Source: Fibrobacteria bacterium | GTDB lineage: Bacteria; Fibrobacterota; Fibrobacteria; UBA11236 | Reading direction: 5' to 3' | Assembly: GCA_050486505.1 (NCBI GenBank) | Contig: JBJHDK010000006.1 | Span: forward strand, 1-60,710 | Length of the DNA: 60,710 nt | Shown here: positions 40,901-59,435 of the stretch, piece after piece | How the letters are laid out: each line of letters starts with the position of its first letter | How positions within the stretch are numbered: position 1 is the first letter of the stretch | Notes under the pieces: generated by a model | Database searches by the model: none | What the model was told of the DNA's origin: nothing | The model's input: only the letters and a program-made list of their open reading frames with translations | Position numbers and translations under genes: made by a program

Positions 40901-41086
40901 CTTGTTCTTGGGAATGTCGACGTCGATGTTCTTGAGGTTGTGGGCCCGCGCGCCGCGCACGCGGATCACGTGGTCGCCCGGTGCGGCTTCAAGAGACGCG
41001 GGGACGGGGGCGAGTTTTGCGGCGGGTTGCGCGGCCATCTTTTTTTTGGCGGACTTCGCGACGGATTTGGGGGCAGGCTTGGTCAT
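37979..41086 (-). CDS. uvrA: Excinuclease ABC subunit A
   Basis: Two Walker A motifs ([18 protein letters not shown]), two 'LSGGEAQR', 'FSFN', '[12 protein letters not shown]'. Confidence 0.98.
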
Positions 41087-41335: not shown

Positions 41336-41872
41336 ATGAAAAGCCAAGATGTTGTGATGATGTCGCTCCTGCGACTTCGTCCTCAAGAAAAGTGGACGCT
41401 TGAAGAACTCTCCTCTCGTTTGGGACAGTCTGCATCGCAATGCCACGCCGCACGAAACCGGTTGCGTGAGGCCCGGCTGCTAAGCGCTGATCCCGCGAAG
41501 CCGTGGCATGTACCGGCCGAAAACTTTGTCGAATACATGGTTCATGGAGTGAAGTACGATTTCCCACCAAAGTTCGGAGCTCTCGTTCGTGGTATTCCTA
41601 CCGCGCATAGCAGCTCATTCGTGAACGAGCAATTCCGAAATGTCGGCGAAGATGCCTTGAAGGTGGTCTGGCCTTCTGCAAATGGCACTGCCATTGGACG
41701 CGCGTTGGATCCACTGCATTCAAGTCAACTTCATCTCTGCGCTCAACCCGGGTTTGAAGACGTGTACAAGCTTCTTGTATGTGTGGATTTGTTGAGAATG
41801 GGGCAGTCGCGCGAGCGCATGTGGGCAGCGAAACAAATTGAAGAGGCCGCCTATGCAGCACGCTCCGACTAA
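41336..41872 (+). CDS. wHTH protein, probable type IV TA antitoxin
   Basis: N-terminal HTH; '[29 protein letters not shown]'; overlaps the NTase gene. Confidence 0.65.
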
Positions 41873-42554
41873 AGACGATCTTGCGCTGGTCGCTCGCAAG
41901 TTAGGTGATCTTCATGAACGATGCTTTCTTGCTGGCGGGACCAGCATTCCTTTTTACCTCGACCAGGAACCAGTAGACCCACCGCGCATGACATACGATA
42001 TCGATGTGGTGATCGAGGTCGCAAGTAAAGTGGAGTTTTTGAGTCAGATCGAAAGCAAACTAAAGACGAGCGGGTTCGTTCACGATGTTTCAGAAGGGGC
42101 TCCAATATGCAGATGGCGCCTCGCGAACATCATCGTGGATATCATGCCAACTGATGAAGACATTCTGGGGTTCTCAAACCCTTGGTATAGGGCCGGCAAA
42201 GACCATCTCACAGCGGTTCAAATCACAGAGGATTGTAGCTGGAAAATCATGGGTGCACCATATGCACTTGCCAGCAAACTCACAGCCTTCTGGGCGCGTG
42301 GAGCGAGCGATCCCAAAGCGAGTCACGATCTGGAAGATATTGTGAGTATCCTGTATGGTCGACGTGCAATCGTGGCTGAAGTGTTGGGTTCACCCGAGGA
42401 TTGTCGGAGCTACATCATGGACTGCTGCGATCGAATCCTGTCGAACGAACGACTGGAGGACGCGATTGAAAGCCACATTCTTCCTGATAACTTCGCGACG
42501 GATCGATTAAAGGTCGTGAAGGAGAAAATGAGAGCGATCAGAACAGGACGGTAA
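41853..42554 (+). CDS. Nucleotidyltransferase-fold (AbiEii-like) toxin
   Basis: 'FLAGG', 'RMTYDIDVV', 'VDIMP', 'KL.AF..RG', 'SHDLEDI'. Confidence 0.75.
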   Translation: MQHAPTKDDLALVARKLGDLHERCFLAGGTSIPFYLDQEPVDPPRMTYDIDVVIEVASKVEFLSQIESKLKTSGFVHDVSEGAPICRWRLANIIVDIMPTDEDILGFSNPWYRAGKDHLTAVQITEDCSWKIMGAPYALASKLTAFWARGASDPKASHDLEDIVSILYGRRAIVAEVLGSPEDCRSYIMDCCDRILSNERLEDAIESHILPDNFATDRLKVVKEKMRAIRTGR

Positions 42555-43067: not shown

Positions 43068-44153
43068 TCAGCCCGCGAGAATCGCGTAGAGCGCGGTGTT
43101 CACGTACAGGTTGGTGCGCCCCGACTTGCGCTTTTCCAAAATCCCGTCCGCTGCCAGGGTGTCGAGGTATTTGGTCGCGGTGAGCCGCGCGATGCCGAGC
43201 TCCTGTTCAAGAAACTGCACCTTGGTGTACGGGTGCGAGAAGAGGCTGTCCACGAGGTCCTGGCTGTAGAAGCGGTGGCCCGCGCGGATTCGACGGCGCG
43301 TGTCTTCCATGGCGTCGAGGATGGCCCGCAAGGTGTCGACGGTGCCGCGCGCGGTGACTTCGACCGTTCGCAGCATGTAGGTGACCCAGTCTTCCCACGC
43401 GTCTGCGGTGCGCGCGGTTTGCAGGAGCCGGTAGTAGTCGGCCTTGGTGCGTACGATGTGCCGGCTGTGGTACAGGATGGGCGCGTCGAGCAGGCCCTGC
43501 TTGACGAGGTAGAGGACGTTGAGGATGCGGCCCGTGCGCCCGTTGCCGTCGTAGAAGGGGTGGATGCTTTCGAACTGGTGGTGCGCGAGCGCCATCTTGA
43601 TGAGCGGGTCGGCGGGGAACCGCGCGTCGTCGTTGAGGAACAGCTCGAGGTCGCGCATGGCAGCGCGGATGGCCTCGGGATCCTGCGGCGGGGTGTAGAC
43701 GGTGTTGCCGGCGGCGTCCTTGAGGACGGTTCCGGGGACGGTGCGGAAGCCGGCGCTGTTTTGAAGCAGTTCAGCCTGAATGGCGAGGATGTGATTGAGG
43801 GTGATGAGCCCGGTTTCGCGCACGGCGTTGTATCCGGTTTGCAGGGCGGCTCGGTACCGCAGGATTTCCTTGGCGGCGGGGTTTCCTCCGGCTTCGCGGA
43901 GGGCGTCGTCGCGGAAGAGTTCGTCATGGGTGGTGACGATGTTTTCGATGGCGGAGCTGTCTTTGGCTTCCTGGAGCCCCAAGGCGTTGATGAGGATGCC
44001 GGGGCGGGGCACGGCGAGACCAAGCCCTTTCAGTTCGGCGAGTTGGCGGTTGGCGGCGGCCAATGCCTTGAGCACGGGGCCTGTTTCAAAGCGCTCCGGG
44101 TTCAGGGCCGTGAGGGAGGAGAGTTGGGGTTTTTCGCTGTTTTCGAGGGGCAT
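43068..44153 (-). CDS. Fic family AMPylase with N-terminal inhibitory motif and C-terminal wHTH
   Basis: 'SSAIEN'; 'HPFYDGNGRTGR'. Confidence 0.95.
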   Translation of the reverse strand: MPLENSEKPQLSSLTALNPERFETGPVLKALAAANRQLAELKGLGLAVPRPGILINALGLQEAKDSSAIENIVTTHDELFRDDALREAGGNPAAKEILRYRAALQTGYNAVRETGLITLNHILAIQAELLQNSAGFRTVPGTVLKDAAGNTVYTPPQDPEAIRAAMRDLELFLNDDARFPADPLIKMALAHHQFESIHPFYDGNGRTGRILNVLYLVKQGLLDAPILYHSRHIVRTKADYYRLLQTARTADAWEDWVTYMLRTVEVTARGTVDTLRAILDAMEDTRRRIRAGHRFYSQDLVDSLFSHPYTKVQFLEQELGIARLTATKYLDTLAADGILEKRKSGRTNLYVNTALYAILAG

Positions 44154-44288
44154 GAGGGGCAATGTATATAAATATCGCAAATATACATGCATGTTTATTG
44201 GATATGCATAGAATTGATGCGTATCCCGAAAGGGGAGGAATTTGGTGCCCCCCTCCAACTGCGCGATCCAGATAGCCTGATGAACAGC

Positions 44289-45009: not shown

Positions 45010-46179
45010 TCATTGTGGGGTCGTTCGCAGCACCAGCAGGTGTGCGCCTCCTCGCTTTGGAACACGTTCCTTGCCGGTAAGGCCTCTCACTTCAATCGTC
45101 CCATCGCCTACCCATGCTTTGATCCACTCCTTTAGATCTTTCTCCCAAACGAGTGGTTGTTCGCATGTGATCTCGAGGGCGTTATCATAGGGGAGCGCGT
45201 TTCGTTTGCTTAACTCTACCCAAACCTCTTGCTTTGCGATGTCGAGATACCGTTGACGGAGCTCCCGGTAGTAGCGGTGCTCAAATGGAAGCGGATCACT
45301 CGAAAACAAATCTTCTTGTCCAAGTGCTGAGCGCCCTTTGGCCTCTGCATCGGCACGCGCCTGCTCCTGGGCCTCCATTGCGGCTTTCTCGGCGCCCTTA
45401 AAGACTTCAACGCCTTTGGGATTTCGCGTTGCATAGATGAGATTGAAATGCGTTCGGTCCTTATTCGGGTGCAGGACAATGGCAGAGCAGACGTGATCAA
45501 AGCCGCCGGCCCTCTGGACAGTTTGGGAGTACTCCCGGACAATCGCGTCGCGTCGATCTTGGCCTTCGAGTCCCAAGATCCTTTCCCTGAACCCGGATGA
45601 TCCGAAGAGCTGCTTGAAGCTTTCCTGTGTGCTTTCCACATCGATGAACCGGTTGATGTAATTCATCATGAAATTGATGAGCACCTCTCCTGGCTTGTAT
45701 GCAAGGAGCGGGCGAATCGTATTCATGGAAAACCCCGTCCAACCGGTCGGATCAATGAAGAAAAATGGAAAAGACTTGTTTCCTCCTGCTTTGACGAAGT
45801 CCAGGATTTCCGAAATGGAATCTTCAAGCTTTCCCTTGTGCGCCTTGATTTCGGCGTCGTTAATTTTGTCAGCATACTCCTGGAGCTTCTTGTATGCCGA
45901 AGCGTCTTCTTCGAGAAAGAAGCAGCGAACCTTAAGTGAGCGACCATGCGCGGCCAAGGTGTACTTGGCCTTACGGAGCTCGGCCAGGGCGATGTGAAAT
46001 GAGGTGTCTTCGTATTTGTCAGAGTTTTGCTTCCACGGCCCGGAGAAGCAGTCAACGTAGGTGATGGTATCCCAATGCGCATAGCCCACAATGCGGGCGA
46101 ACCGCTCCAGATATTTCTGGAGCACGATGTGTTTGATCCGCGTTTGTTCGCGGCCATCGTAGTGAATCGAGTCGGTCAT
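45010..46179 (-). CDS. tcmP: Three-Cys-motif partner protein (TcmP, methyltransferase-like fold)
   Basis: 'T.IKHIVLQKYL', 'YVDCFSGP', 'FFFIDPTG', 'EVLINFM', 'LIYATRNPKG'; GTATGA/ATGA coupling to DUF5131. Confidence 0.85.
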   Translation of the reverse strand: MTDSIHYDGREQTRIKHIVLQKYLERFARIVGYAHWDTITYVDCFSGPWKQNSDKYEDTSFHIALAELRKAKYTLAAHGRSLKVRCFFLEEDASAYKKLQEYADKINDAEIKAHKGKLEDSISEILDFVKAGGNKSFPFFFIDPTGWTGFSMNTIRPLLAYKPGEVLINFMMNYINRFIDVESTQESFKQLFGSSGFRERILGLEGQDRRDAIVREYSQTVQRAGGFDHVCSAIVLHPNKDRTHFNLIYATRNPKGVEVFKGAEKAAMEAQEQARADAEAKGRSALGQEDLFSSDPLPFEHRYYRELRQRYLDIAKQEVWVELSKRNALPYDNALEITCEQPLVWEKDLKEWIKAWVGDGTIEVRGLTGKERVPKRGGAHLLVLRTTPQ

Positions 46180-46967
46180 ACACCTGCGACAAGTCGATGT
46201 CTCCTCAAAGGCTCGCCTTGGTGGTCTGCAAGAGAGGTTTCGGCCATGAGGGGAAACGCATCATAAGTGCGCCCATCGAGTTCGCGTCCTGTTAGGGATT
46301 TGCGTGGGCCGCCCCACTGTTTGAAGAAGAAGGCGACGCCGGCTTTGTCGCACTGGTCACGGATGGAACGCACCCAGCTCGGATCCAACGGGCGTGCGCC
46401 ATGCCCACTTTCTCCACCGACGATGACCCACTTGATGCCTTTGAGATTGAGCTTCCCGAGTCCTTCGAGCAAAGGTTCGATGGAAAGAAATGGTACCGAA
46501 GGCGAGGCAGCACGAAGACTGTCGATTCGCGGCACGCCTTGTTTGCGGTTTTCGACGCTGACACCCCACCAGATATGCGAGGCATCCGCGGCTTCGCGTA
46601 AAGGGCCTGCGAGAAGCTTGGCCATGCGGTCTGCCCGCTTGGTGAGGACCTGATAGGTGTGCCAGTTGGCACGCAGCATCACGTCACAGACTTTGGTGAT
46701 GTAGCTGTCCGGAATTTTCGGGTGAAACAGATCACTCATCGAGTTGACGAAGATCTTTTTCGGCGCACCCCACTTGAGAGGTTCCTCCAGTTTTTCCGGA
46801 ACGATCCGGAGGTCGAAACCGTTTTCGAAGGGGTGGCCGGGTACGCCGCGGAATCGCTCGGCGAAAGTTTCGGCGTAACAGTGCTTGCAGCCTGCACTGA
46901 TCTTGGTGCAGCCCCTTACAGGGTTCCAAGTGGCATCAGTCCACTCTATTTTCGAAGAGCTGCTCAT
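46176..46967 (-). CDS. DUF5131 / phage Gp37-Gp68 family radical-SAM-like protein
   Basis: 'IEWTDATWNPVRGCTKISAGCKHCYA' (CX6CX2C), 'FVNSMSDLFH', 'WVIVGGESG', 'FFFKQWGG'. Confidence 0.95.
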   Translation of the reverse strand: MSSSSKIEWTDATWNPVRGCTKISAGCKHCYAETFAERFRGVPGHPFENGFDLRIVPEKLEEPLKWGAPKKIFVNSMSDLFHPKIPDSYITKVCDVMLRANWHTYQVLTKRADRMAKLLAGPLREAADASHIWWGVSVENRKQGVPRIDSLRAASPSVPFLSIEPLLEGLGKLNLKGIKWVIVGGESGHGARPLDPSWVRSIRDQCDKAGVAFFFKQWGGPRKSLTGRELDGRTYDAFPLMAETSLADHQGEPLRRHRLVAGV

Positions 46968-47049
46968 ACGTGCAGTAAGTCTAGTGCGTTTTCCATCAAA
47001 ATTCCAGATGATTCGCGAGATTCTTTGAAGAGGATTGATTTCTGTTGCA

Positions 47050-48123
47050 TTACTCCTCGTCCTGCGCCGCAACCGTCCAGATTCTCTTGAGCGGCAATTC
47101 GGCATGCAGGTCTTCATCGAGCTTGTCGTAGGTCGCGAAGAGCTGTTCGAGGATTTCCTTCTGGCTCCAAAGACGGATGCGGAAGAAGCGGTTGGCGAGT
47201 TCCTTGTAGACGTTGTTCTTGAAGCCGCCCCATGACACGAAAAGGGCGGCGTCGGCCTTGGTGTTGTCCATGGCGCCGAGAAGCTGATCGACTTCGGGCC
47301 TGCCGACCGGGGATTCTTGCGATTTGACCTGAACGCAGATGCGGGGTGAGCCGAAACCGAGCGCCCCTGCTCCGGCGAGGATGTCGATGCCGCCGTCGGG
47401 GCCGGCTGGGCTGAGGTAGGTGGTGTAGCCTTGGGCCTTGAGGATGGCGTCAATCAGGCGGGAGAGGTCGTGGCCACTGAACTTGGCGCGGACGAGTTGG
47501 GCGATCTGGTCGCGGCCCGATTCTTCCAAGTCGCTGGGTTCGTCGGTTTCGTCGGCGATGTCATCGGCAATCGCATCGGCTAACGCGGTCTTTTTCGCGG
47601 ACTTTCCACCTGTGACGCCCTTGAAGCCGGGATCAGCTTGCCATTTGGAGGCGCGCATGGCCAGTATGCGTTCTTCGGCGTTGTTGCGATGGATGCGGCA
47701 GATGGTCATGAACGCGCCGAAGCTGTGGAGCAGGTCTTGCCCGAATTGGGTTCGCGGGATGGCTTCGCCGATCCATTTGACGGAACGCCAGTGATAAAAG
47801 GGGTTGGGCCCTTTGGATTCGAAGACGTAGTCTCCGGTGATTTCAGCGATATGGATGGCGTTTTGTTGCTTGGAGGGAAGAATGATGAGGTCACCCTTTT
47901 TCATGGCGTGAGCGAAGGGGTAAACCTGGCTGGCGTGGTTGCGGAGGCGCTTGGGTTTGGCGTCGGGGTAGATTTCCCGCATGATGCCTTCCAAGGCTTC
48001 GCGGTTAGCAAGTTTGGAGAGGTCGTGATTGAGGTGATTCCAAGTAACATAGACGCGCTTCTCATCGAGAAACTTTTGTTCGTGTTCGCCGTGCCCGCCG
48101 GCGCGGATGAGCCAGATTGCCAT
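47050..48123 (-). CDS. mrr: Mrr-family restriction endonuclease
   Basis: N-terminal 'WLIRAG..GE' domain; catalytic 'DGGIDILA..VQVK'. Confidence 0.88.
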   Translation of the reverse strand: MAIWLIRAGGHGEHEQKFLDEKRVYVTWNHLNHDLSKLANREALEGIMREIYPDAKPKRLRNHASQVYPFAHAMKKGDLIILPSKQQNAIHIAEITGDYVFESKGPNPFYHWRSVKWIGEAIPRTQFGQDLLHSFGAFMTICRIHRNNAEERILAMRASKWQADPGFKGVTGGKSAKKTALADAIADDIADETDEPSDLEESGRDQIAQLVRAKFSGHDLSRLIDAILKAQGYTTYLSPAGPDGGIDILAGAGALGFGSPRICVQVKSQESPVGRPEVDQLLGAMDNTKADAALFVSWGGFKNNVYKELANRFFRIRLWSQKEILEQLFATYDKLDEDLHAELPLKRIWTVAAQDEE

Positions 48124-48218
48124 GCTTGGTCCTTTTTGGTTCTCTTGTACCGCCTCGCTCGGAAATAATAACTGCCCCAACTACATTGAAATTCACCTAC
48201 TTCACCTCTGGAACTCTT

Positions 48219-50348
48219 ATGTCCTACTCCGAAATCGTCAGTTTTCTCTGGAACGTCGCCAATCTGATCCGCGACACCTTCAAGCGCGGCAAGTATCAGG
48301 ACGTCATTCTCCCCCTGACCGTTCTCCGCCGTCTCGATTCCGTGCTGGCCCCGACCAAGGAAAAGGTGCTGGCCAAGCACGCCGAACTGAAAGAGCGGAA
48401 GCTGGACAATATCGAAGGCCCGCTCTCCAAGGCATCGGGCTACGCTTTCTACAACACCTCGAAGTTCACGTTCGACCGTTTGACGGCGGACTCCACCAAT
48501 GTGGCCAAGAACCTGCGGAACTACATCGCCGGATTCAGCCAGAACATGCGCGAGGTGATCGAGAAGTTCGACTTCGACAACACGATCACCAAGCTGGACG
48601 AGGCGGGGCTTTTGTTCCAGGTGCTGGGCGAGTTCAAGAAGGTCGACTTGCACCCTGACCGGGTGGACAACGCCACCATGGGCACGATTTTCGAGGAGTT
48701 GATCCGCAAGTTCAACGAAGCGCTTGATGAAAATCCCGGGGAGCACTTCACGCCGCGCGACGTGGTGCACCTCATGGTGGATTTGATGCTGGCCGGCGAT
48801 GAGAAAGAGCTTCGCGGAAAGGGTTTGGTCCGGACCGTGTACGACCCTTGCTGCGGTTCGGGTGGGATGCTGACCATCGCCAAGGAGCATATCGCCGAGG
48901 GCATCAGCAAAGAGTTGACTTTGCTCAAGCCGCCCATCAATCCCGATGTGGATGTTCACCTGTTCGGACAGGAGGTCAACCCCGAGACCTTCGCCGTGTG
49001 CAAGTCGGATCTATACATGAAATCGAAAACGGGCCGGGAGGCGGACCGTATCCTGTTCGGCAGCACGTTGTCCAACGACCGCCACGCCGGACGCAAGTTC
49101 GACTATCAGATTGCCAATCCGCCATACGGGAAAGACTGGAAGCGCGACGAGAAGGTGGTTCGTGCGGAATACGAAAAAGGCGCCTCGGGCCGCTTCGGGG
49201 CTGGTCTGCCGCGCATCAGCGATGGCCAGATCCTGTTCCTGCAGCATCTTGTCCACCACATGCAGCCGGTAAAGGATGGCGGCGGGCGTGCGGTGATCAT
49301 CATGAACGGGTCGCCCTTGTTCACAGGGGATGCCGGGAGTGGTGAAAGCGAAATCCGCCGCTGGGTCCTCGAGAACGACCTGCTCGAAGCCCTGATTGCC
49401 TTGCCCGAGCAGATGTTCTACAACACGGGTATTTCCACCTATGTGTGGGTGCTCAGCAACCGGAAGGCGAAGGCGCGTAAGGGGAAGGTGCAGCTCATCG
49501 ACGCCTCCTCGTTCTGGGTGTCGATGCGCAAGAGCTTGGGCGACAAGCGGCGGGAGATTCCGTTCGACAAGGCGCAAGAGATTTTGGCCTTGCATGCCGG
49601 GTTCAAGGACGGCGACGCGCGTAAGGTCAAGAAGGATGGGGTGGAGGAAGAGACCGTCGTCTCCAAGGTGTTCCCCACCACCCATTTCGGCTACCGCAAG
49701 ATCACCGTGGAGCGACCCCTACGTTTGAATTTTCAGGTAACCTCCGAGCGGTTGGCGCGGCTGGATGATGAGGCCGGGTTCCGCAATCTGGCGGTATCGA
49801 AGAAGAAAACCGGCTCAGTGGCGAAAGAGAAGGAGGAGACGGAAGGCCGCAAGGAACAACAGGCCATCCTGTCGATTCTGAAAACCCTCCCGGATACGTT
49901 GTTCCTGGATCGGAAGAAGTTCGTGGCGGCGTTGGAGGGAGCGTTCGCCAAAGCGAAGGTGAAGCTGGCTGCACCCGTGCGCAAGGCGATTCTTTCTGCA
50001 CTTTCGGAGAGGGACGAGAAGGCGGAGATTTGCCGGGATGCGCAGGGCCATCCGGAACCCGACTCCGAATTGCGGGATACCGAAAACGTTCCGCTCTCCG
50101 AGGACGTTCATGCTTTCTTCGAGCGGGAGGTGAAGCCGCATGTGCCCGATGCCTGGATCGACGAGAGCAAGCGGGACCCGAAAGACGGCAAGGTGGGGAT
50201 GGTGGGGTACGAGATCAACTTCAACCGGTACTTCTACAAGTACACCCCGCCCCGGCCGCTGGAGGACATCGAGCAGGAGATCCGGGAGATCGAGAAGGAC
50301 ATCGTCCGGATGTTGGCGGATGTGACCGGGAGCGGGGTCGCAGGGTAG
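48219..50348 (+). CDS. hsdM: Type I R-M methyltransferase (m6A)
   Basis: 'GEHFTPR', 'YDPCCGSGGML', 'ANPPY', 'FYNTGI', 'GYEINFNRYFY'. Confidence 0.96.
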   Translation: MSYSEIVSFLWNVANLIRDTFKRGKYQDVILPLTVLRRLDSVLAPTKEKVLAKHAELKERKLDNIEGPLSKASGYAFYNTSKFTFDRLTADSTNVAKNLRNYIAGFSQNMREVIEKFDFDNTITKLDEAGLLFQVLGEFKKVDLHPDRVDNATMGTIFEELIRKFNEALDENPGEHFTPRDVVHLMVDLMLAGDEKELRGKGLVRTVYDPCCGSGGMLTIAKEHIAEGISKELTLLKPPINPDVDVHLFGQEVNPETFAVCKSDLYMKSKTGREADRILFGSTLSNDRHAGRKFDYQIANPPYGKDWKRDEKVVRAEYEKGASGRFGAGLPRISDGQILFLQHLVHHMQPVKDGGGRAVIIMNGSPLFTGDAGSGESEIRRWVLENDLLEALIALPEQMFYNTGISTYVWVLSNRKAKARKGKVQLIDASSFWVSMRKSLGDKRREIPFDKAQEILALHAGFKDGDARKVKKDGVEEETVVSKVFPTTHFGYRKITVERPLRLNFQVTSERLARLDDEAGFRNLAVSKKKTGSVAKEKEETEGRKEQQAILSILKTLPDTLFLDRKKFVAALEGAFAKAKVKLAAPVRKAILSALSERDEKAEICRDAQGHPEPDSELRDTENVPLSEDVHAFFEREVKPHVPDAWIDESKRDPKDGKVGMVGYEINFNRYFYKYTPPRPLEDIEQEIREIEKDIVRMLADVTGSGVAG

Positions 50349-50588: not shown

Positions 50589-51197
50589 ATGAATATCTTT
50601 GCCTCCATGTACGACCCGGGCACCCTGATCGCCGAACTCCCCCCCATGTTCCGCTTTCGGGACGTGGAGGCCTATGGTGTGCCCAGGCCACGCCTGGAGC
50701 AGTGGCTGGAGTCCGGCGAGGTGGAGAAGCTCGACCGCGGCCTTTACCGCAAGACCTCGGCCCCCGTCACGGAGCACGAAACCCGCGCCATGGTGGCGGC
50801 GCGCGTTCCCGGTTCGGTGATGTGCCTGATGACGGCCCTGAACTTCCACGAGATCGGCACGCAGCTTCCGCGCCATGTGTGGATCGCCGTGCCGACCCGT
50901 GCCCGCATTCCCAAGACGAACCTGCCGGTGCGCGTGGTGCGCTTTTCGCCCGCGATGATGCGGGTGGGGGTGGAGGAGCACATTCTGCAGGGCGTGCCCG
51001 TGAAGGTGACCAGCCCGGCTCGCACGGTGGCGGATTGCTTTCGCATGCGCAAGGTAGTGGGCATCGATGTCACCATCGAGGCGCTCCGTGAAACGCTCCG
51101 GTACCGGAAGGCCACTCCCGATCAGATCCTGCGGGCGGCGGAGGTTTCTCGCGTCCGGAAGCTGATCGAACCTTATCTGGATACGCTGCTCGCATGA
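50589..51197 (+). CDS. abiEi: AbiEi family type IV antitoxin
   Basis: 'GEVEKLDRGLY', 'CLMTALNFH', 'TSPARTVADCF'; start 50589 or 50607. Confidence 0.9.
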   Translation: MNIFASMYDPGTLIAELPPMFRFRDVEAYGVPRPRLEQWLESGEVEKLDRGLYRKTSAPVTEHETRAMVAARVPGSVMCLMTALNFHEIGTQLPRHVWIAVPTRARIPKTNLPVRVVRFSPAMMRVGVEEHILQGVPVKVTSPARTVADCFRMRKVVGIDVTIEALRETLRYRKATPDQILRAAEVSRVRKLIEPYLDTLLA

Positions 51198-52108
51198 CAC
51201 GGGAGGCGAAGAACGTGGCGGCCTCGGTGCGGGCGCGGCTGCTGGCAGGCGCCAAGGGGCGCGGGGAGGAGTTTTCCCTCACTTTGCAGCGGTATGCGGC
51301 GGAGCGTTTTCTTTACCGCCTGGGCCGCTCGATGTTCTCGGATCGCTTCGTGCTCAAGGGGGCGATGTTGTTCTCGCTGTGGAAGGACGTGTACCGGGCC
51401 ACGCAGGACGTGGATCTCGCGGGCTACGGTCCGGACGATCCGGATTCGCTGCGCGAGGCGTTCCGACTGATTTGCGAGATCCCGTGTCCCGAGGATGGGG
51501 TCCGGTTTGATCCGGGTTCGGTGCGGCTGAGCGAGATTCTCGAAAAGGACGAGTACGCCGGTTGGCGGGCGAGGATTTTGGGCGATCTCGACGGCATGCG
51601 TCTCACCTTGTACGTGGACGTTGGGTTCGGGGACGTAATCTTGCCTCCGGCGCAGGTGGAGGATTATCCGGTGCTGCTGGACGCGCCGGCCCCGCGGATT
51701 CGGGCCTACCCGCGCGAGGCGGTCGTTGCAGAGAAATTTCACGCGCTGGTAAAGCATGGGATGCGGAACAGCCGGATGAAGGACTTTTATGACCTGTTCG
51801 TGATGGCCTCCCGATTCGGATTTTCCGGGGCGACGTTGTGCGCCTCCATCCGGGCAACCTTCTCGACGCGGCCGGGATCGCCGTTCCCGGAGGCGACGCC
51901 AACAGGCCTGACAGCGGAGTTTTACGCGACCTTCGAGAAAGCGGATCAGTGGCGCGGGCATTTGGCGAAGACGAGACTCCGTGAAGCGCCGGAGGATTTC
52001 GAGGCGGTCGGAAACACCATCCGCGCTTTTCTGGGCCCGGTGGTGGATGCCTTGGCGGCGGGGGAACAACACGAGAAGCACTGGAACGCCGGTGGGGGGT
52101 GGCGGTGA
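51194..52108 (+). CDS. abiEii: AbiEii nucleotidyltransferase toxin
   Basis: 'ERFLYRL', 'FVLKGA', 'RATQDVD', 'VDVGFGD', 'AEKFHA', 'NSRMKDFYD'; ATGA overlap. Confidence 0.93.
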   Translation: MTREAKNVAASVRARLLAGAKGRGEEFSLTLQRYAAERFLYRLGRSMFSDRFVLKGAMLFSLWKDVYRATQDVDLAGYGPDDPDSLREAFRLICEIPCPEDGVRFDPGSVRLSEILEKDEYAGWRARILGDLDGMRLTLYVDVGFGDVILPPAQVEDYPVLLDAPAPRIRAYPREAVVAEKFHALVKHGMRNSRMKDFYDLFVMASRFGFSGATLCASIRATFSTRPGSPFPEATPTGLTAEFYATFEKADQWRGHLAKTRLREAPEDFEAVGNTIRAFLGPVVDALAAGEQHEKHWNAGGGWR

Positions 52109-53442
52109 TGGCACAGGATGTTCGGGTTACTGCGCGGTATAAGTCGTATCCGAAATACAAGGATTCAGGTGCGGAGTGGCTTCGGGGTATTCCTGAAGGT
52201 TGGGCGACTTTGCCGAGTCGGCGGTTGTTTGTTCAAAAACGTGAATCAGCCAAAGAAAACGATGAACAGCTGGCCGCCTCCCAAAAGTATGGTGTGATTC
52301 CTCAGAGTCTTTTCATGGAAATGGAGGACCAAAAGGTCGTCCTCGCATTGAGTGGAACGGGAAATTTCAAGCACGTTGAGAAGAATGACTTTGTAATCAG
52401 CCTGCGAAGCTTTCAGGGTGGCATTGAGAGGGCCCTGTACTCGGGTTGCGTTAGCCCTGCCTACACTGTCCTGCGTGCAAATCGCGAGATTGTTCCAGAG
52501 TACTGGGGATTCCTGCTCAAGAGCGGACAATACATTACGGCGCTGCAATCCGTGGTTCAAGGGATTCGCGACGGAAAAAACGTCAGTTATGAACAGTTCG
52601 GTCAGCTTGAACTGCCCATGCCCTCAGTTGACGAACAACGCGCCATCGCCGCGTTTCTCGACCGCGAAACTGCCAGGATCGACGCGCTGGTCGCCAAAAA
52701 GGAACAGTTGATCGAACGCCTGCGCGAGCGGCGCAGCGCGCTCATCACCCAGGCCGTGACCAAGGGCCTCGATCCCTCCGTGCCGATGAAGGATTCGGGG
52801 GTGGAGTGGTTGGGGGGGGTGCCGCAGCATTGGGAGGTGAAGAAGCTCAAGTTCTCCGCCCGATTCGTTGGTGGCGCGACTCCGTCAAAAAATGAGCTGG
52901 GGTATTGGAACGGGGAAATTCCTTGGGTTTCGCCGAAGGACATGAAATCTTGGGAAATCCACGATTCCGAAGATCATATCACTGCTGAAGGGTTGACCAA
53001 CAGCGCTGCAAAGCTGGTTCCCGAAAACGCGGTCTTGGTTGTCGTTCGCTCCGGCATTCTGCAGCATTCCATTCCGGTTGCCATTAACAAGGTTCCGGTT
53101 ACCCTGAACCAAGACATGAAAGCAATACTGCCGACGAAGGAGCTGTATCCCGAGTTCTTGGCTTACTTCATATTCGGTTTGCAAGACAAATTCCTGCTTG
53201 AATGGACCAAGCAAGGGGCAACCGTGGAAAGCATTGAGGTGGATCTCATGATAAACACGCCTATGGTTTTGCCCCGCTTTTCCGAGCAGCAAGAAATTGT
53301 CGAGCTCCTGAATAAAGCGGTAGGAAAGCTTGATGCGTTGATTTCGCGTGCCGTCGATGGGGTCGAAAGCGTTAAAGGTTACCGTGCTGCCCTGATCTCA
53401 TCCGCCGTTACTGGAAAGATTGACGTCAGGGGGCTGGTATGA
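52108..53442 (+). CDS. hsdS: Type I R-M specificity subunit
   Basis: Repeated 'KDSG.EWL..(I/V)P..W' flanking two AT-richer TRDs; 'EQRAIAAFLD'; 'SAVTGKIDV'. Confidence 0.95.
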   Translation: MAQDVRVTARYKSYPKYKDSGAEWLRGIPEGWATLPSRRLFVQKRESAKENDEQLAASQKYGVIPQSLFMEMEDQKVVLALSGTGNFKHVEKNDFVISLRSFQGGIERALYSGCVSPAYTVLRANREIVPEYWGFLLKSGQYITALQSVVQGIRDGKNVSYEQFGQLELPMPSVDEQRAIAAFLDRETARIDALVAKKEQLIERLRERRSALITQAVTKGLDPSVPMKDSGVEWLGGVPQHWEVKKLKFSARFVGGATPSKNELGYWNGEIPWVSPKDMKSWEIHDSEDHITAEGLTNSAAKLVPENAVLVVVRSGILQHSIPVAINKVPVTLNQDMKAILPTKELYPEFLAYFIFGLQDKFLLEWTKQGATVESIEVDLMINTPMVLPRFSEQQEIVELLNKAVGKLDALISRAVDGVESVKGYRAALISSAVTGKIDVRGLV

Positions 53443-56400
53443 CAGGCAAAATCTCCGAACGCCGGTTTGAGGACGCCATCGAGTGCGCCCTCCTCGGCCG
53501 CACGCCCGACGCGTGCGACGATGACGGCTTTCTTGTCGGCGATCCCGAGCCGTCCTACCTCGGCCTGGCGCCCGGCGGATACCGCCGCCGCAACAGCCTG
53601 GATTACGACAAGGAGCTTTGCCTCTTCCGCAACGACGTGCTCGACTTCGTGTACGCCACCCAACCCAAGGAGTGGGGCAAGCTCAAGGAACATCACGGCA
53701 AAGATGCCAATGACAAGTTCCTGAACCGCCTCGCGACGGAGATCAGCAACCGAGGACTGCTCGACGTGCTCCGCAACGGCATCAAGGATTCTGGTGTCAA
53801 GATCCGCTTGGCCTTCTCCCGTCCCGCCAGCGGGCTGAACGAGGAGACCTTCCGTCTCTACGAGGCCAACAGTTTCACCGTCGTGCGGCAGCTTCACTAC
53901 AGCCAAAAGAACGAAAAGCTCTCCATCGACCTCGTCCTGTGCCTCAACGGCCTGCCCCTGTTCACCGCCGAGCTGAAGAATCCCCTCAACGGGCAGAACG
54001 TCGAGGAGGCCGTGCGGCAGTACAAGGCCCGCGAGACACGCGGCGAGCCGTTGTTGGCGTACCGTCGTTGCCTCGCGCATTTCGCCGTCGACCCGTATCT
54101 CGTCTATGTCGCCACGGCTTTGGCGGGCGAAAAGACCCGATTCCTGCCCTTCAACAAAGGTTGGAACAAGGGTGCGGGAAATCCCCCGGTTCCGCCCTCT
54201 CGCCGCGGCGGCTACGCCTCGGACTACCTCTGGAACGAGGTGTGGGCGCGCGACAGTATTCTCGAGCTCGTTCACCGCTTCATTCAGGAAATCGAAGTCG
54301 AGGATGAGGACGGCAAGAAGACCGGCGACAAGTTCCTGCTCTTTCCCCGCTACCACCAGCTCGATACCGTCCGCCGGCTGGTCCGCGACGCCAAGCTCTC
54401 CGGGGCGGGGAAGCGATACCTGATCCAGCACTCCGCCGGCAGTGGCAAGAGCTACACCCTTTCCTGGCTGGCGCATCAACTCGCCACCTTGCACGACGGG
54501 GAAGACCATCGAGTCTTCGACTCGGTTATCGTCATCACCGACCGGCGCATCCTCGACCGTCAGCTCCAATCCACCATGATGCAGTTGGAGCATACCCTCG
54601 GCGTGGTCGAGAACATCGACAAGACCTCGGCCCAGCTGCGGGATGCCCTGCAGGCGGGCAAGACCATCATCGTGACCACCTTGCAAAAGTTTCCCGCCAT
54701 GCTGGAACAAATCCGGCAACTGAGCGAGGAAGCGAGCAAGAAGGGCGATCAGGGCACTCATGCCCGCATGGGAAACCATTTCGCCGTCATCGTGGACGAG
54801 GCGCACTCCTCGCAGTCCGGCGAAAGCTCCGAGTCGCTCAAGCGCGTCATCGCCGCCGGAACGCTTGAGGAGGCCGCTCAGGCGGGGCCCGAGGAGAAAG
54901 GCACCGAGGACGTGCTCATCGAGAACGCGGAGGCCCGCAAGTTCCCCCCCAACATGAGCGTCTTCGCCTTCACGGCCACCCCCAAGGCGAAAACCTTGGA
55001 ACTGTTCGGGGAAAAGAAGGCCGACGGACAATTCGAGTCGCCCTACCTCTACAGCATGCGTCAGGCCATCGAGGAGAACTTCATCCTTGACGTGCTCACC
55101 AGCTACACCACGTATACGGCATATTGGCGGCTTCTGAAGAAAATCGAGGACGATCCGCGATACGAAAAAGGCAAGGCGACGTATTTGCTCAAGTCCTTCG
55201 TGGAGTTGAACCCCCATGCCATCGATGCCAAGGTCGCCATCATGGTCGAGCACTTCGCCGCCAAGGTGCAGCACGAGATCGGCGGCAAGGCCAAGGCGAT
55301 GATCGTGACCCGGTCACGGCATCAGGCCGTTCGCTACAAACTGGCCGTCGATAAATATCTGGCCGAAAAGGGTTATCCCTTCAAGGCGCTGGTTGCCTTC
55401 TCCGGCAGCGTCGAGGACGGAGGCAAGGAATACACCGAAACCGGGATGAACGGATTTCCTGAAACCCAGACGGCGCGGACGTTCCGTGGGCCGGAGTACC
55501 GCTTCCTCATCGTGGCGGAGAAGTTCCAGACCGGGTTCGATCAGCCGTTGCTGCACACCATGTACGTGGACAAGAAGCTGACCGGGTTGAATGCCGTGCA
55601 GACTTTGTCGCGCCTCAACCGCACTCATCCCGAAAAAAAAGGGACCATGGTGCTGGATTTCGCCAACGAAGCCGAAGAAATCCGCAAGGCCTTCGAAGAC
55701 TACTACGAGGCGACCATCCTGTCCGAAGAGACCGACGCGCATCAGCTATACGACATTCATCAGCGGCTGTTCCGTTTCGAAGTCTTTGACCCGTCCGATG
55801 TGGAGCGCTTTACCAAGGCCTTCCTCGACCGGAAAGCCGGCCAGGATCAGCTGTACACAATCCTGAAACCGATTCAGGAACGGGTACAGGCGCTGGACGA
55901 AGCGGCCAAAGCCGACTTGCGCGGTCAGCTCGATGATTACACCCGACTCTATGCCTTCCTGTCGCAAATCCTGCCTTTCACGGACGCCGATCTGGAAAAG
56001 CTGTATCCCTTCGCGAAATACCTGCGCCGCCTGGTACAGGGGGAGCGGGAGGAGCTGCCGCGGGAAGTGCAGGAAAACATCGACATGGAGTCGTACCGCA
56101 TTCAGGAGACGGGAAGCGGCTCCCTCTCCATTCGAAAGGGCAATGGCAAGCTCGACCCCATCAAGGCCAAGGACAAGCACGGAGTCAACGAGGATCCCAT
56201 TGAGCCCCTGTCACGCATTATCGGCGACTTGAACGATCGGTTCGGGCTCAACCTCGGGCCCGAGCACCGTGTCACCTTGGGCCAGATCATTGGAAAGCTC
56301 GACAACGACTTCGCCCTGGATGCCAGTGCGCGGGTCAACAATCGTGAAAACGTCCGCCTGACCTTCGAGCACAAGATTGAGGACGTGATTCAGGACGTCG

Positions 56401-56996
56401 TGGATTCCAACTTCGATTTCTACAAGCGCATCGCCGACGATCCGGGGTTCGGGACTTACCTCAAGGAAATGCTGTTCGAACAGTATCTGGGCAAGCACCG
56501 GCAGGCCGCGGATCTGGTCAAGCAGAAGGAATCCAAAACGCTGGAGTTCAAGTCCACCTTGCGCTGGAACCTGAAAGAAGGCAAGAACGACCCGGCCATC
56601 ACCCACGCGGTTCTGAAGACGATCGCGGCCTTTCTGAATACCGATGGGGGGGACTTGCTGATCGGGGTCGCTGACGACGGGACGGTGCTGGGCCTCGATG
56701 CCGACGGGTTTGAGAACGAGGACAAGTTCTGCCTGCACCTCGCCCAAGTTGTTCACAATGCCCTCGGGGCTCATGCCGCCAAACGTATCGACCCACGCAC
56801 ACAGGTTGTGGATGGAAAGATGGTGTGCCTCGTGGCCTGCCAGCGCGGGCAAGAGGTTGTTCGCCTCAAGTGGAAGGGGATGGAGTCCGACCCGGATGGA
56901 GATTATTTCGTCCGCATGGGACCGGGATCGAAGAAACTGACGAAGGAAGAGGCCGAAGCGGATATCCAGACGCGGTTTGGGTGGCAGAAAGGCTAA
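53439..56996 (+). CDS. hsdR: Type I R-M restriction subunit fused to C-terminal Schlafen/AlbA_2 domain
   Basis: Nuclease 'IDLV..NGLP...ELKN', 'QHSAGSGKS', 'DEAH', 'TATP', 'QTLSRLNR'; tail 'ESKTLEFKS..AAFLNTDGGDLLIGVADDG'. Confidence 0.95.
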   Translation: MTGKISERRFEDAIECALLGRTPDACDDDGFLVGDPEPSYLGLAPGGYRRRNSLDYDKELCLFRNDVLDFVYATQPKEWGKLKEHHGKDANDKFLNRLATEISNRGLLDVLRNGIKDSGVKIRLAFSRPASGLNEETFRLYEANSFTVVRQLHYSQKNEKLSIDLVLCLNGLPLFTAELKNPLNGQNVEEAVRQYKARETRGEPLLAYRRCLAHFAVDPYLVYVATALAGEKTRFLPFNKGWNKGAGNPPVPPSRRGGYASDYLWNEVWARDSILELVHRFIQEIEVEDEDGKKTGDKFLLFPRYHQLDTVRRLVRDAKLSGAGKRYLIQHSAGSGKSYTLSWLAHQLATLHDGEDHRVFDSVIVITDRRILDRQLQSTMMQLEHTLGVVENIDKTSAQLRDALQAGKTIIVTTLQKFPAMLEQIRQLSEEASKKGDQGTHARMGNHFAVIVDEAHSSQSGESSESLKRVIAAGTLEEAAQAGPEEKGTEDVLIENAEARKFPPNMSVFAFTATPKAKTLELFGEKKADGQFESPYLYSMRQAIEENFILDVLTSYTTYTAYWRLLKKIEDDPRYEKGKATYLLKSFVELNPHAIDAKVAIMVEHFAAKVQHEIGGKAKAMIVTRSRHQAVRYKLAVDKYLAEKGYPFKALVAFSGSVEDGGKEYTETGMNGFPETQTARTFRGPEYRFLIVAEKFQTGFDQPLLHTMYVDKKLTGLNAVQTLSRLNRTHPEKKGTMVLDFANEAEEIRKAFEDYYEATILSEETDAHQLYDIHQRLFRFEVFDPSDVERFTKAFLDRKAGQDQLYTILKPIQERVQALDEAAKADLRGQLDDYTRLYAFLSQILPFTDADLEKLYPFAKYLRRLVQGEREELPREVQENIDMESYRIQETGSGSLSIRKGNGKLDPIKAKDKHGVNEDPIEPLSRIIGDLNDRFGLNLGPEHRVTLGQIIGKLDNDFALDASARVNNRENVRLTFEHKIEDVIQDVVDSNFDFYKRIADDPGFGTYLKEMLFEQYLGKHRQAADLVKQKESKTLEFKSTLRWNLKEGKNDPAITHAVLKTIAAFLNTDGGDLLIGVADDGTVLGLDADGFENEDKFCLHLAQVVHNALGAHAAKRIDPRTQVVDGKMVCLVACQRGQEVVRLKWKGMESDPDGDYFVRMGPGSKKLTKEEAEADIQTRFGWQKG

Positions 56997-56999
56997 CCC

Positions 57000-58145
57000 T
57001 TGATCGCCTACATCGAAAAATTTATCCGGGAAGAACGCAAAGTTCTTTTCGACTTTTTTGATTCTAACACCTTCCAGGAATTCGCCGTTCAAGCTCGTGG
57101 AGTGGAAACCAATCAGCCCTTGGAGAAGGTCCGGTCACTGGTACTGTTGGAAGGCTATACAGGAAGAAGGCTCCGGGAAGGGAGTTACTACCGGATTCTT
57201 CCGGAAACCTTGCGACAACTCGAATTTCAAGTTTACGCAGAATCTTCCCTCATCGGGTACAGAGTTGCACTGTCTTCGCGAGTTCCCGAACTTTTCGGGG
57301 AAACTTATCGGCCCAAGTTTGACTATGAATTTGGATTACGGCCAGTTGAAATGGAATTTCCTCAGTTTCGAGACGCTAAAGACGTCGAGCTCATTGTATA
57401 TGACGTAGGCCAAGGCAACTGGAATGAGGTCGTATTGGATGGCCAAGCCGTTTTGGTTTATGACCTAGGTTGCACGTACACCGCTACCCCCGATGAAATG
57501 AGCAGTAAGCTTCGGATAGCCGTGCAGAGGTACCTGACGGATAAGCCGATATTGGTTCTATCGCACTGGGATCTCGATCACTATGCGCTACTGAAGGCGA
57601 TCGAAAATCCTGAATCTCTCTTCAGCTTTGCACTCGTCAGAACTCCTCCGCCCACACTAACAGCTAGAATGATCTTCTCACGGCTGCGCCAAAAATTGGG
57701 TGTTCGGTTTTCCAGCACAGGGGGAGCTACGCTACCCAGACAAAAGCCGAATCCGCTTGAACTGTATACACGGTTTAGTCAACAACTTTTCATTTACCGC
57801 GCTCGCCAGAATAGCAGTCGGAACATGAGCGGTTTCGTCTGTGTTGTGCGAACTTCTGAGTCGATCGCCATTCTTCCTGCGGATCACCATTATGACCAGA
57901 TAAAGCAATACCTGTGTGATCGGGAATCGAAAAAGAATGAGTACCTGGTCGTTCCGCACCACGGTGGCCATGCAGGCAAGTTGGTGCTTCCGGAGATCGG
58001 AAAGCTTAATCGACAGGCGATAGTGTCGGTGGGCACAAACGGCTATAACCATCCTAGGGATACCGTTATGGCCGCACTCAGGGGATCCAACTACAATACT
58101 TTCATCACGAGTAATCGTGGTAAAACATTTCGTGGGGTTCTATAA
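57000..58145 (+). CDS. MBL-fold (ComEC-like) hydrolase with extra N-terminal domain
   Basis: 'YDVGQGN', 'YDLG', 'LSHWDLDHY', 'VPHHGG', 'N.YNHP'; TTG start 3 bp after the hsdR stop; AT-richer. Confidence 0.82.
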   Translation: MIAYIEKFIREERKVLFDFFDSNTFQEFAVQARGVETNQPLEKVRSLVLLEGYTGRRLREGSYYRILPETLRQLEFQVYAESSLIGYRVALSSRVPELFGETYRPKFDYEFGLRPVEMEFPQFRDAKDVELIVYDVGQGNWNEVVLDGQAVLVYDLGCTYTATPDEMSSKLRIAVQRYLTDKPILVLSHWDLDHYALLKAIENPESLFSFALVRTPPPTLTARMIFSRLRQKLGVRFSSTGGATLPRQKPNPLELYTRFSQQLFIYRARQNSSRNMSGFVCVVRTSESIAILPADHHYDQIKQYLCDRESKKNEYLVVPHHGGHAGKLVLPEIGKLNRQAIVSVGTNGYNHPRDTVMAALRGSNYNTFITSNRGKTFRGVL

Positions 58146-58164: not shown

Positions 58165-58494
58165 TCATCCCTTCTCCCTCGACCCCTTGAACTTCTCCAC
58201 CGGGTACTTCGCCTCGTTCTTCTTCAACTTCGCTCTCACCACCTCTGCCACATCCAACCCATACGTCTCCGCCAGCAGCAGCGCCGAATACAACACATCC
58301 GCCAACTCGTCCTTCAGCTTCTCCCTGTCAACCTCGTCGGCGGCCTTCCACAGAAACAACTCCAGCAATTCCCCCGCCTCAACCGAAAGGTTGATTGCCA
58401 GGTTTTTCCCGTCGTGAAACTGCGCCCAATCCCGGTCATCCCGGAATTGCACAATCTCGTCGATCAGGCTGCGAAGTTCGGTATCTGATTTCAT
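58165..58494 (-). CDS. MazG-like nucleotide pyrophosphohydrolase
   Basis: 'FRDDRDWAQFH..KNLA..EAGELLELFLW..DELADV..KYP'. Confidence 0.92.
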   Translation of the reverse strand: MKSDTELRSLIDEIVQFRDDRDWAQFHDGKNLAINLSVEAGELLELFLWKAADEVDREKLKDELADVLYSALLLAETYGLDVAEVVRAKLKKNEAKYPVEKFKGSREKG

Positions 58495-59435
58495 GCCTTG
58501 AACACTTTCGTATTGTGCCAGTCAATATAGGTCGCATCCGGGCGGCCCTCGGGAGATTCCGGGAGATACGCGAGGCCAGCGCCATGGAACCTATAGTATT
58601 CCCGCCCGTTTTCGAACTCCTCCCGGATCCGCTTGCTCACCTCCACCTTCAGTTCCTTCGTCACCGTCAGATACCCGTCATCGAACAGCTTGTGCATGTC
58701 CGATCGCAGCAACAATCCGTTCGACAAAGAGTGTGGCCCCGATTTCGCGTACGGCTTGATGTGCGCCGCCTCCAGTACCGGAAGCGTCTTCTCGCCCGTG
58801 ATCGCGCAGCGCCGCTGGTACCCGTCCAGCACATCCACCCGGAACGAACCCTGGCCCTTCCGCACCCGCGTCAACACATCGCGGTAACCCGGGTTCGACT
58901 CGCGCACCAACCACTCCGTCGGCTCCTTCGCATCCGTCCGCATCGGCAGGTACCGCTTCAGCAGCACCTCGACCCGCCGCCACAGATCGCCGCCGATTTG
59001 TTCGTCGGTGTCGTAGCCCTTGCCCGTCACGATCGCGTTCGCCCAGTTCTCCGGCGCGGGGATCCAGTCCTCCTGCGCGAAGAAGACCGGATTCGTCAGC
59101 ACAATGCAGCCGATGGTCGGGTTCGGGGTTTCTTTGTCTTGCCGGTAGTTCTGGATCGACTGTCGCAGCTCGGCCAGGCTCGCGCAACCGTTCCCCGTGC
59201 GGAATGTATCCCACGCCAGAGACAGGGGCAGGAACGTGTGACTCGAGAAAAAGCCCACGCCGCCGATATGGTTCCGCGGCGACTTCAGCTTGAACAGGAA
59301 CGGCGCACCGGGGGACAGCGCCTTGAAGGTTTGCTTCCCGCCCGGCTGCCAGAAGTTGATGTCTTCCGGCGTGGGAATCCGGCTGCCGAGAAAGTCGAAC
59401 CAGTCATTGTCCGTCACTCCCAAATGGATCTTCAT
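58491..59435 (-). CDS. HNH endonuclease with N-terminal putative DNA-reader domain
   Basis: 'GVTDNDWF..INFWQP..FLFKLK'; 'FR..VL..Y..RCAITG..LEAAHI..NGLLL..D.HKLFD.G'. Confidence 0.9.
   Translation of the reverse strand: MKIHLGVTDNDWFDFLGSRIPTPEDINFWQPGGKQTFKALSPGAPFLFKLKSPRNHIGGVGFFSSHTFLPLSLAWDTFRTGNGCASLAELRQSIQNYRQDKETPNPTIGCIVLTNPVFFAQEDWIPAPENWANAIVTGKGYDTDEQIGGDLWRRVEVLLKRYLPMRTDAKEPTEWLVRESNPGYRDVLTRVRKGQGSFRVDVLDGYQRRCAITGEKTLPVLEAAHIKPYAKSGPHSLSNGLLLRSDMHKLFDDGYLTVTKELKVEVSKRIREEFENGREYYRFHGAGLAYLPESPEGRPDATYIDWHNTKVFKA

Follow-up and report, generated by a model that had tools for sequence, protein, structure and literature searches.

A type I restriction subunit ending in a Schlafen domain: a widespread HsdR fusion with a candidate RNA-directed effector

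The window considered here is a 60,710-nucleotide stretch of a Fibrobacteria bacterium (NCBI GenBank assembly GCA_050486505.1, contig JBJHDK010000006.1, positions 1 to 60,710 of the forward strand), which carries a type I restriction-modification (R-M) system whose restriction subunit, HsdR, ends in a Schlafen domain. The fusion gene, hsdR-SLFN (53439..56996, plus strand), is one uninterrupted open reading frame (ORF) in the ORF list and its translation, starts with an ATG that overlaps the hsdS stop codon by 4 nt, and encodes a protein of 1185 aa (P0001) that is recognised by PADLOC as REase_I (E 9.4e-37) and by its Pfam domains. From the N-terminus, and all on the plus strand, these are an HSDR_N PD-(D/E)xK nuclease (residues 104-230, with D164, E178 and K180; 53748..54128; Pfam E 7.1e-16), a superfamily 2 (SF2) translocase motor (residues ~303-758; 54345..55712), a helical C-terminal HsdR region that is all-helix in the secondary structure of a full-length model (residues ~760-1025; 55716..56513), and, after just a few linking residues, an SLFN_AlbA_2 domain (PF04326; residues 1031-1167; 56529..56939). 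The C-terminus of the protein lies 18 residues past the AlbA_2 match.

The HsdR part is complete, as an earlier interpretation made from the DNA letters alone (the sequence-only reading) had claimed. Within the motor, the SWI2_SNF2 (E 6.9e-23), ResIII and DEAD matches in Pfam cover residues 303-553 and a T1R_D3-like match covers residues 687-738, while the nuclease motif D164...E178-L-K180, the Walker A motif GSGKS (334-338) and the DEAH box (453-456) are all legible in the translation. These nuclease, Walker A and DEAH motifs are invariant or at least 90% conserved among 61 full-length relatives, with D164 and E178 invariant and K180 at least 90% conserved. Since both HsdR catalytic centres have been kept, the tail is an addition and not a replacement. 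Like the HsdR subunits of EcoR124I and EcoKI, the protein combines a nuclease, an SF2 motor and a helical C-terminal region, with hsdM and hsdS in the operon; unlike them, it has about 160 extra C-terminal residues that make up the Schlafen domain, and the genes abiEi and abiEii are inserted between hsdM and hsdS. The PD-(D/E)xK nuclease, the SF2 motifs, the type I R domain 3 and the co-operonic hsdM and hsdS genes all assign it to HsdR, and its match to NCBIfam TIGR00348 (E 1.6e-61) reaches 208.7 bits, under the trusted cut-off of 284.55, which marks it as part of a divergent HsdR subfamily. P0001 belongs to both the HsdR and the SLFN_AlbA_2 families by all sequence and fold criteria tested except the TIGR00348 cut-off.

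The tail was anticipated as an in-frame continuation from about position 56500 with Schlafen-like strings, and profile searches confirmed this assignment. SLFN_AlbA_2 is matched at E 1.1e-18 and 68.2 bits, against a gathering cut-off of 25.3, over profile positions 1-117 of 118, and a PF04326 search of the whole genome on DNA returned the same segment (56529-56939) with 73.2 bits as the sole AlbA_2 domain in the 2.40-Mb assembly. The two strings occupy residues 1031-1039 (ESKTLEFKS) and residues 1063-1081 (AAFLNTDGGDLLIGVADDG) of the translation. The first contains the Ex4ExK motif ESKTLEFK (E1031, E1036 and K1038; 56529..56552, plus strand), which is assigned by its conservation and by alignment with SLFN14, and in which E1031 and E1036 align with the two glutamates of ES..EFK in the solved Schlafens SLFN13 and SLFN14. 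The second ends in GVADDG and contains D1079 (56673..56675, plus strand), a putative third catalytic acid, which aligns with the second aspartate of the GVDD motif in SLFN13 and SLFN14. The acidic triad that had been read from the letters is thus retained. In rat SLFN13, residues E205, E210 and D248 are reported to be essential for tRNA cleavage (PMC5862951).

When the last 185 residues were aligned with 119 diverse relatives (120 sequences in total, 38-81% identity), E1036 was found to be invariant, and E1031, K1038 and D1079 to be at least 90% conserved. Furthermore, 118 of 120 fused proteins have an E-x4-[ED]-x-K motif within their C-terminal 200 residues, where the other two (P0026 and P0052) have none. 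These observations bear on a first alternative, namely that the AlbA_2 tail is a non-catalytic accessory that only binds DNA or RNA and, for example, anchors HsdR on DNA ends, R-loops or transcripts. AlbA_2 has long been annotated as DNA-binding, the human SAMD9 domain has been crystallised with DNA (7ksp), and some fused proteins are labelled 'RNA-binding domain-containing protein' at NCBI. Binding alone, however, would not require such conservation of a catalytic set, the equivalents of which are reported to serve catalysis in SLFN13, and a purely binding role therefore seems improbable. Apart from the known Schlafen catalytic set, the tail also contains invariant N1067, D1089 and R1159 residues (R1159 at 56913-56915), and a clade-specific D-x-F-x-N-x-D-K-F-x-L-H segment is found at residues 1089-1100 (56703-56738).

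The structure predicted for the tail points in the same direction as the profile searches. A tail-only AlphaFold2 model has a mean predicted local distance difference test (pLDDT) score of 95.2 and a predicted template modelling (pTM) score of 0.89, and Foldseek searches of the PDB with it (E<=1e-3) returned AlbA_2, SAMD9 and Schlafen structures only, namely 3lmm, the SAMD9 tRNase domain (7ksp and 9o0d), SLFN13, SLFN11, SLFN14, SLFN12 and SLFN5. Alignment with VIA-align gave Z values of 14.0 for 3lmm, 12.1 and 11.8 for the SAMD9 tRNase domain and 9.0-9.8 for SLFN14, SLFN5, SLFN11 and SLFN13, compared to 4.8 for the best unrelated fold, and the Schlafen region that was matched is the C-lobe (chain residues ~165-350). 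The tail can therefore be confidently predicted to adopt the AlbA_2/Schlafen C-lobe fold. It is also kept by purifying selection as strong as that on the HsdR core and is not decaying, as the ratio of nonsynonymous to synonymous substitution rates is 0.05-0.26 for the tail and 0.06-0.20 for the core in 10 of 10 close pairs.

The fusion occurs in many other proteins and is not an artefact of assembly. A search with residues 1000-1185 against proteins of 651-2074 aa, clustered at 90% identity, found at least 1471 clusters that match the tail at E<=1e-3. All of the best 120 of these 1471 clusters combine PF04326 with the type I R domain PF22679, and HSDR_N was detected in 104 of them; the remaining 16, which are 653-988 aa long, look N-terminally partial. 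Among contigs drawn from one genome per species, HsdR relatives are encoded at no fewer than 594 of the 602 pattern matches listed, and the fusion recurs on hundreds of independent contigs. When the window proteins were compared by blastp with all ORFs of 79 related loci, the tail was present in 63, from many phyla.

Complete HsdR proteins that lack the tail are also found. They are 986-1036 aa long, are 57-64% identical to the window protein, stop at query residues 1014-1028, just before the Schlafen domain, and occupy the same cassette (loci L002, L033, L035, L040, L045, L051, L063, L073 and L074). A split form, with a stand-alone tail gene beside a tail-less hsdR, was found in none of the 79 loci, and short tail-like proteins elsewhere may be fragments; in one locus (L076) the tail lies in a separate frame, due to an apparent frameshift. 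A single origin of the tail was rejected, since a FastTree phylogeny of 65 HsdR cores (64 loci and the window, with tail columns excluded and 15 loci with incomplete cores omitted) requires 5 gains or losses, at least 3 of which are forced by well-supported branches. In this tree the window HsdR sits on a long branch that is paired with a second long one, and its placement is unsure. More than 10 phylum-level names are intermixed in the tree, and the cassette therefore moves horizontally. Within the phylum of the window, a tail-like match (E<=1e-10) was detected in 20 of 296 species genomes, 5 of which, the window's included, contain HsdR-sized frames (1160-1353 aa, judged by size alone), while the 11 further genomes of its genus gave no match. 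This patchy presence in the phylum and absence elsewhere in the genus mark the cassette as accessory. Plasmid-borne copies of the fusion were not found, as a tblastn search of the tail against 72,556 plasmids returned 10 records, all with at most 36% identity and other architectures.

Upstream of the fusion gene lie the other members of the cassette, all on the plus strand. The hsdM gene (48117..50348) is a 743-aa ORF when read from the first TTG, and matches N6_Mtase (E 5.8e-54) and HsdM_N (E 4.5e-25). Its relatives align from residue ~35 only, and the true start may lie further downstream than the first TTG. The C-terminal extension of about 240 aa (residues ~500-743) is matched by no Pfam family, and HsdM is ~700-760 aa long in tail-bearing and tail-less relatives alike. 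It is followed by abiEi (50589..51197), an antitoxin or regulator gene (AbiEi_4 E 4.8e-8, AbiEi_1 E 9.1e-5), by abiEii (51194..52108), a nucleotidyltransferase toxin gene that overlaps abiEi by 4 nt (AbiEii E 6.8e-40), and by the specificity subunit gene hsdS (52099..53442; Methylase_S in 2 stretches, E 5.1e-23). Homologues of hsdM with 60-75% identity are present in 59 of the 79 related loci, hsdS in 65, abiEi in 50, abiEii in 48 and a Fic homologue in 21, with hsdM-abiEi-abiEii-hsdS-(fic)-hsdR as the recurring gene order. The AbiEi/AbiEii insertion between hsdM and hsdS is a stable part of the cassette in many phyla. AbiEii-family nucleotidyltransferases such as MenT modify tRNA, and if this AbiEii does the same, the cassette may carry two tRNA-directed modules. 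Many related cassettes have a Fic/DOC gene inserted between hsdS and hsdR, whereas the two Fic genes of the window are placed on either side of the region, on the opposite strand.

The cassette is held in a defence and toxin island of about 20 kb located downstream of uvrA (37979-41086). At the start of the island lies a weak AbiEii-like ORF (41838-42554, plus strand, E 3.4e-5), followed on the minus strand by the first Fic gene (43068-44258) and by a TcmP (three-Cys-motif partner) and DUF5131 pair (45010-47453; PADLOC candidate PDC-M30, E 1.3e-19 and 9.3e-102). Downstream of the cassette, a 381-aa ORF (57000-58145, plus strand) begins 4 nt past the hsdR stop; it weakly matches the ComEC/Rec2 C-terminal region (TIGR00361, E 7.5e-7) and no Pfam family. 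It is followed by an HNH_2 gene that resembles phosphorothioated-DNA-binding restriction enzymes (58491-59435, minus strand; NF045808 E 8.3e-23, below cut-off), and by the second Fic gene at the contig end (59584-60633, minus strand). The 381-aa ORF, HNH, TcmP and DUF5131 genes have blastp counterparts in 0 of the 79 related loci, and the downstream ORF was rejected as a conserved partner of hsdR on this ground.

Prokaryotic Schlafen (pSlfn) proteins, and their link to R-M systems, have been described in publications of 2025-26. They are reported to carry an Ex4(E/D)xK motif and in 97% of cases to be fused to domains thought to be sensors, and one of them, RorSlfn5, cuts tRNA anticodon arms upon sensing a T5 protein (bioRxiv 10.1101/2025.07.24.666596). 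Cash cleaves tRNA when bound to cyclic tetra-adenylate (cA4), more than half of the defence-linked Schlafens accompany R-M or other nucleases, and Schlafens are speculated there to sense DNA-cleavage products (PMC13462974). In RzAgo, a fusion of Schlafen with a prokaryotic Argonaute (SLFN-pAgo), two single-lobe SLFN domains pair to form a horseshoe like that of the two-lobed mammalian form, and tRNA cleavage is licensed by target-DNA recognition and ATP (bioRxiv 10.64898/2026.05.29.728809). Schlafen domains fused to R-M methyltransferases (PMC13462974) and to HsdS also appear in published surveys, as do back-up Schlafen RNases in BREX loci. With these reports, the earlier suggestion that Schlafen domains can act as tRNA cleavers has gained prokaryotic anti-phage effectors as precedents. 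No description of an HsdR-Schlafen fusion was found in the literature searched, although the catalogue of 55 pSlfn architectures (10.1101/2025.07.24.666596) may list it, and the terms 'HsdR', 'ResIII' and 'type I restriction' are absent from the searched supplementary files of PMC13462974.

The HsdR-SLFN protein resembles the pSlfn effectors (RorSlfn5, DUF262-Slfn, Cash and RzAgo) in its Pfam domain, its fold and its Ex4(E/D)xK motif with a third acidic residue. As in those systems, a single C-lobe-like domain sits on a larger module that might act as a sensor, and the gene lies near defence genes: AbiE, Fic, HNH restriction-like and PDC-M30 genes are its neighbours, so that both the fusion and the context typical of pSlfn systems are found here. 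Unlike in those effectors, the partner is a complete HsdR nuclease-translocase with the Schlafen domain at its C-terminus, and the GHKL ATPase, Ig-like, Csx15, NACHT and Argonaute modules of the pSlfn effectors are missing. Pfam detected no HATPase-type family in P0001, and in the absence of a GHKL ATPase the protein does not belong to the Schlatpase supradomain. The mammalian SLFN11, SLFN13 and SLFN14 and SAMD9 have a homologous nuclease lobe that shares its catalytic residues, and SLFN11 likewise joins a Schlafen nuclease to a nucleic-acid motor, with the nuclease reported to share its chain with a helicase-type ATPase domain that binds single-stranded DNA (ssDNA). Mammalian Schlafens, however, have two lobes (N and C) per chain and a superfamily 1 (SF1)-type helicase C-terminal to the nuclease, whereas HsdR-SLFN has one lobe, which is C-terminal to an SF2 double-stranded DNA translocase with its own PD-(D/E)xK DNase.

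Taken together, these findings suggest, with a probability of roughly 60%, that the tail serves the R-M system as a second effector, an RNase under the control of HsdR. By homology, the tail would be an RNase that depends on a metal ion and whose most probable substrate is tRNA. Where DNA restriction does not suffice, it would stop translation and thereby bring about abortive infection or an arrest of growth. The helical region that directly precedes the tail is 'purported' in EcoR124I to touch the methyltransferase, and within an R2M2S1 complex the two tails may thus lie apart, on opposite sides of the core, where the RNase would be off. A change in the state of HsdR would then allow the tails to pair and switch the RNase on, and any event that gathers or frees HsdR subunits could act as the switch. 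Pairing is proposed because single-lobe Schlafen domains, where characterised, have to form pairs or oligomers; a homodimer prediction for the tail, run without controls, scored 0.00, which speaks neither for nor against it.

As for the trigger, the engagement, stalling or collision of the HsdR motor on unmodified DNA is tentatively put forward, with odds well below even, and is slightly preferred over a guard model. Such a DNA-coupled trigger fits the Schlafen precedents at least as well, since SLFN-pAgo is licensed by target DNA and the helicase of SLFN11 binds ssDNA. In its fullest form, which is possible if rather doubtful, HsdR-SLFN would be a dual-nuclease motor, in which ATP-driven translocation with stalling or collision on unmodified DNA licenses the DNA cut and also pairs the two single-lobe tails into an active tRNase.

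The guard model is the one that the sequence-only reading had proposed by analogy with PrrC. According to it, the intact R2M2S1 complex silences the Schlafen RNase, and an anti-restriction factor, such as a DNA mimic (Ocr or ArdA) or a Stp-like peptide, or the degradation of HsdR unleashes it, so that inhibition of restriction leads to translation arrest. PrrC/EcoprrI and PARIS are established guards of type I R-M systems, and PrrC/EcoprrI is the paradigm of a tRNA-directed back-up that is physically tied to them. In addition, the tail adjoins the region thought to contact the methyltransferase, through which the assembly state could control it, and the presence of other abortive-infection-type toxins in the cassette (AbiEii, often Fic) would fit a layered back-up. 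PrrC is made of an ABC-ATPase-like N-terminal domain and a nuclease domain of its own, and it is triggered by Stp and dTTP. It accompanies the type IC enzyme EcoprrI as a separate polypeptide whose gene lies between the hsd genes, whereas the HsdR-SLFN tail is fused and belongs to a different family: it is unrelated to PrrC, has the Schlafen fold and lacks an ABC-type ATPase, and among the 7 Pfam families in P0001 none is ABC-type or PrrC-like; the tail may still function in the way that PrrC does. Moreover, the triggers described for characterised Schlafens are all positive signals (a phage protein, cA4 or target DNA) and not the loss of a partner. In some type I enzymes, HsdR exchanges between a free and a methyltransferase-bound state in a dynamic equilibrium, and silencing through assembly would then leak. 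A guard of this kind is considered rather unlikely, and while the effector part of the earlier proposal is well grounded in homology, its PrrC-like trigger is speculative.

Several observations weigh against the proposal that the tail is an HsdR-gated RNase effector. Its RNase activity, substrate and trigger are all derived from homology, and some AlbA_2 domains of eukaryotic Schlafen and SAMD9 proteins were initially reported as binding nucleic acids. The tail is dispensable, since tail-less HsdR proteins share the same cassette, and in one locus (L017) it is truncated after 62 residues. A full-length AlphaFold2 model based on 61 relatives (pLDDT 62.3, pTM 0.36) is too poor for placing the tail on HsdR. 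Finally, among 80 loci collected through the clade motif LKTIAAFLN, 33 encode HsdR fusions, 6 encode other or truncated proteins and 41 encode members of a sister family of 380-490 aa, mostly from Bacteroidota, which contains the closest non-HsdR relatives of the tail and was found by an alignment-based search, a single-protein search having given none. In 15 of 16 sister-family loci (49 neighbouring ORFs scanned) the gene lies among housekeeping genes, with glycogen debranching, GWxTD, photolyase and methyladenine glycosylase, SpoIIE/STAS and cell-envelope genes as neighbours, and only one locus (L083) adjoins type I R-M and KAP NTPase genes. This suggests that the Schlafen clade is not exclusively a defence effector.

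The same loci raise the alternative that the tail is an RNase with a role outside defence, such as the control of cassette transcripts or of restriction alleviation after horizontal transfer, or that of a general stress-response RNase that became fused by chance. It can also be noted that 30.4% of prokaryotic Schlafen genes are reported not to lie near defence genes (bioRxiv 10.1101/2025.07.24.666596). The Schlafen domain of HsdR-SLFN is, however, covalently part of a restriction enzyme, within an AbiE/Fic cassette and a defence island, and a role of this kind seems very improbable.

Few bacterial defences are as common as type I R-M systems, and PrrC/EcoprrI is, to our knowledge, the textbook and nearly unique case of restriction that is physically coupled to tRNA cleavage. 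If the tail of HsdR-SLFN is indeed a tRNase, the HsdR-Schlafen family, with at least 1471 clusters in many phyla, would make this coupling a common one. Although large and conserved, the family has been annotated only generically, and it adds an uncharacterised architecture to the prokaryotic Schlafens, where each trigger found so far differs. It also offers a system, contained in one operon, for studying how an RNA-directed suicide nuclease is controlled by a motor that senses DNA, which is the same question that is posed by human SLFN11. Should the dual-nuclease motor prove true, the recognition of foreign DNA would lead directly to both DNA cutting and translation shut-off, and HsdR-SLFN would be to bacteria what SLFN11, with its helicase-gated tRNase, is to humans, as well as the first restriction enzyme to contain an RNA-directed arm of its own.

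Outside HsdR, relatives of the tail occur in several other contexts. A search of 1.84 billion representatives returned 5596 hits at E<=1e-3 and 118 hits at E<=1e-30, and a Pfam scan of 20 hits found the Schlafen clade at the C-terminus of an SNF2 helicase, a TPR protein and a PLD-like protein. Many further hits are ~420-440 aa long with an unannotated N-terminal half; the N-terminal half of the sister family resembles ATP12 with an atlas score of 0.91, which serves as a lead only, and has a weak PDB match to 2r6i (E 0.01). HsdR itself can end in a LexA-like Peptidase_S24 domain in rare cases (16 clusters, P0152 and P0271-P0285), and in P0152 (1329 aa) HsdR, SLFN and S24 are joined in one chain, with Peptidase_S24 after the Schlafen domain. 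These HsdR-S24 and HsdR-SLFN-S24 fusions show that the HsdR C-terminus accretes other regulatory modules as well, and they leave the question of the trigger undecided. A further protein of 2337 aa (P0140) contains 20 consecutive partial SLFN_AlbA_2 matches (E 9.9e-156), which represent either an unusual repeat architecture or an artefact.

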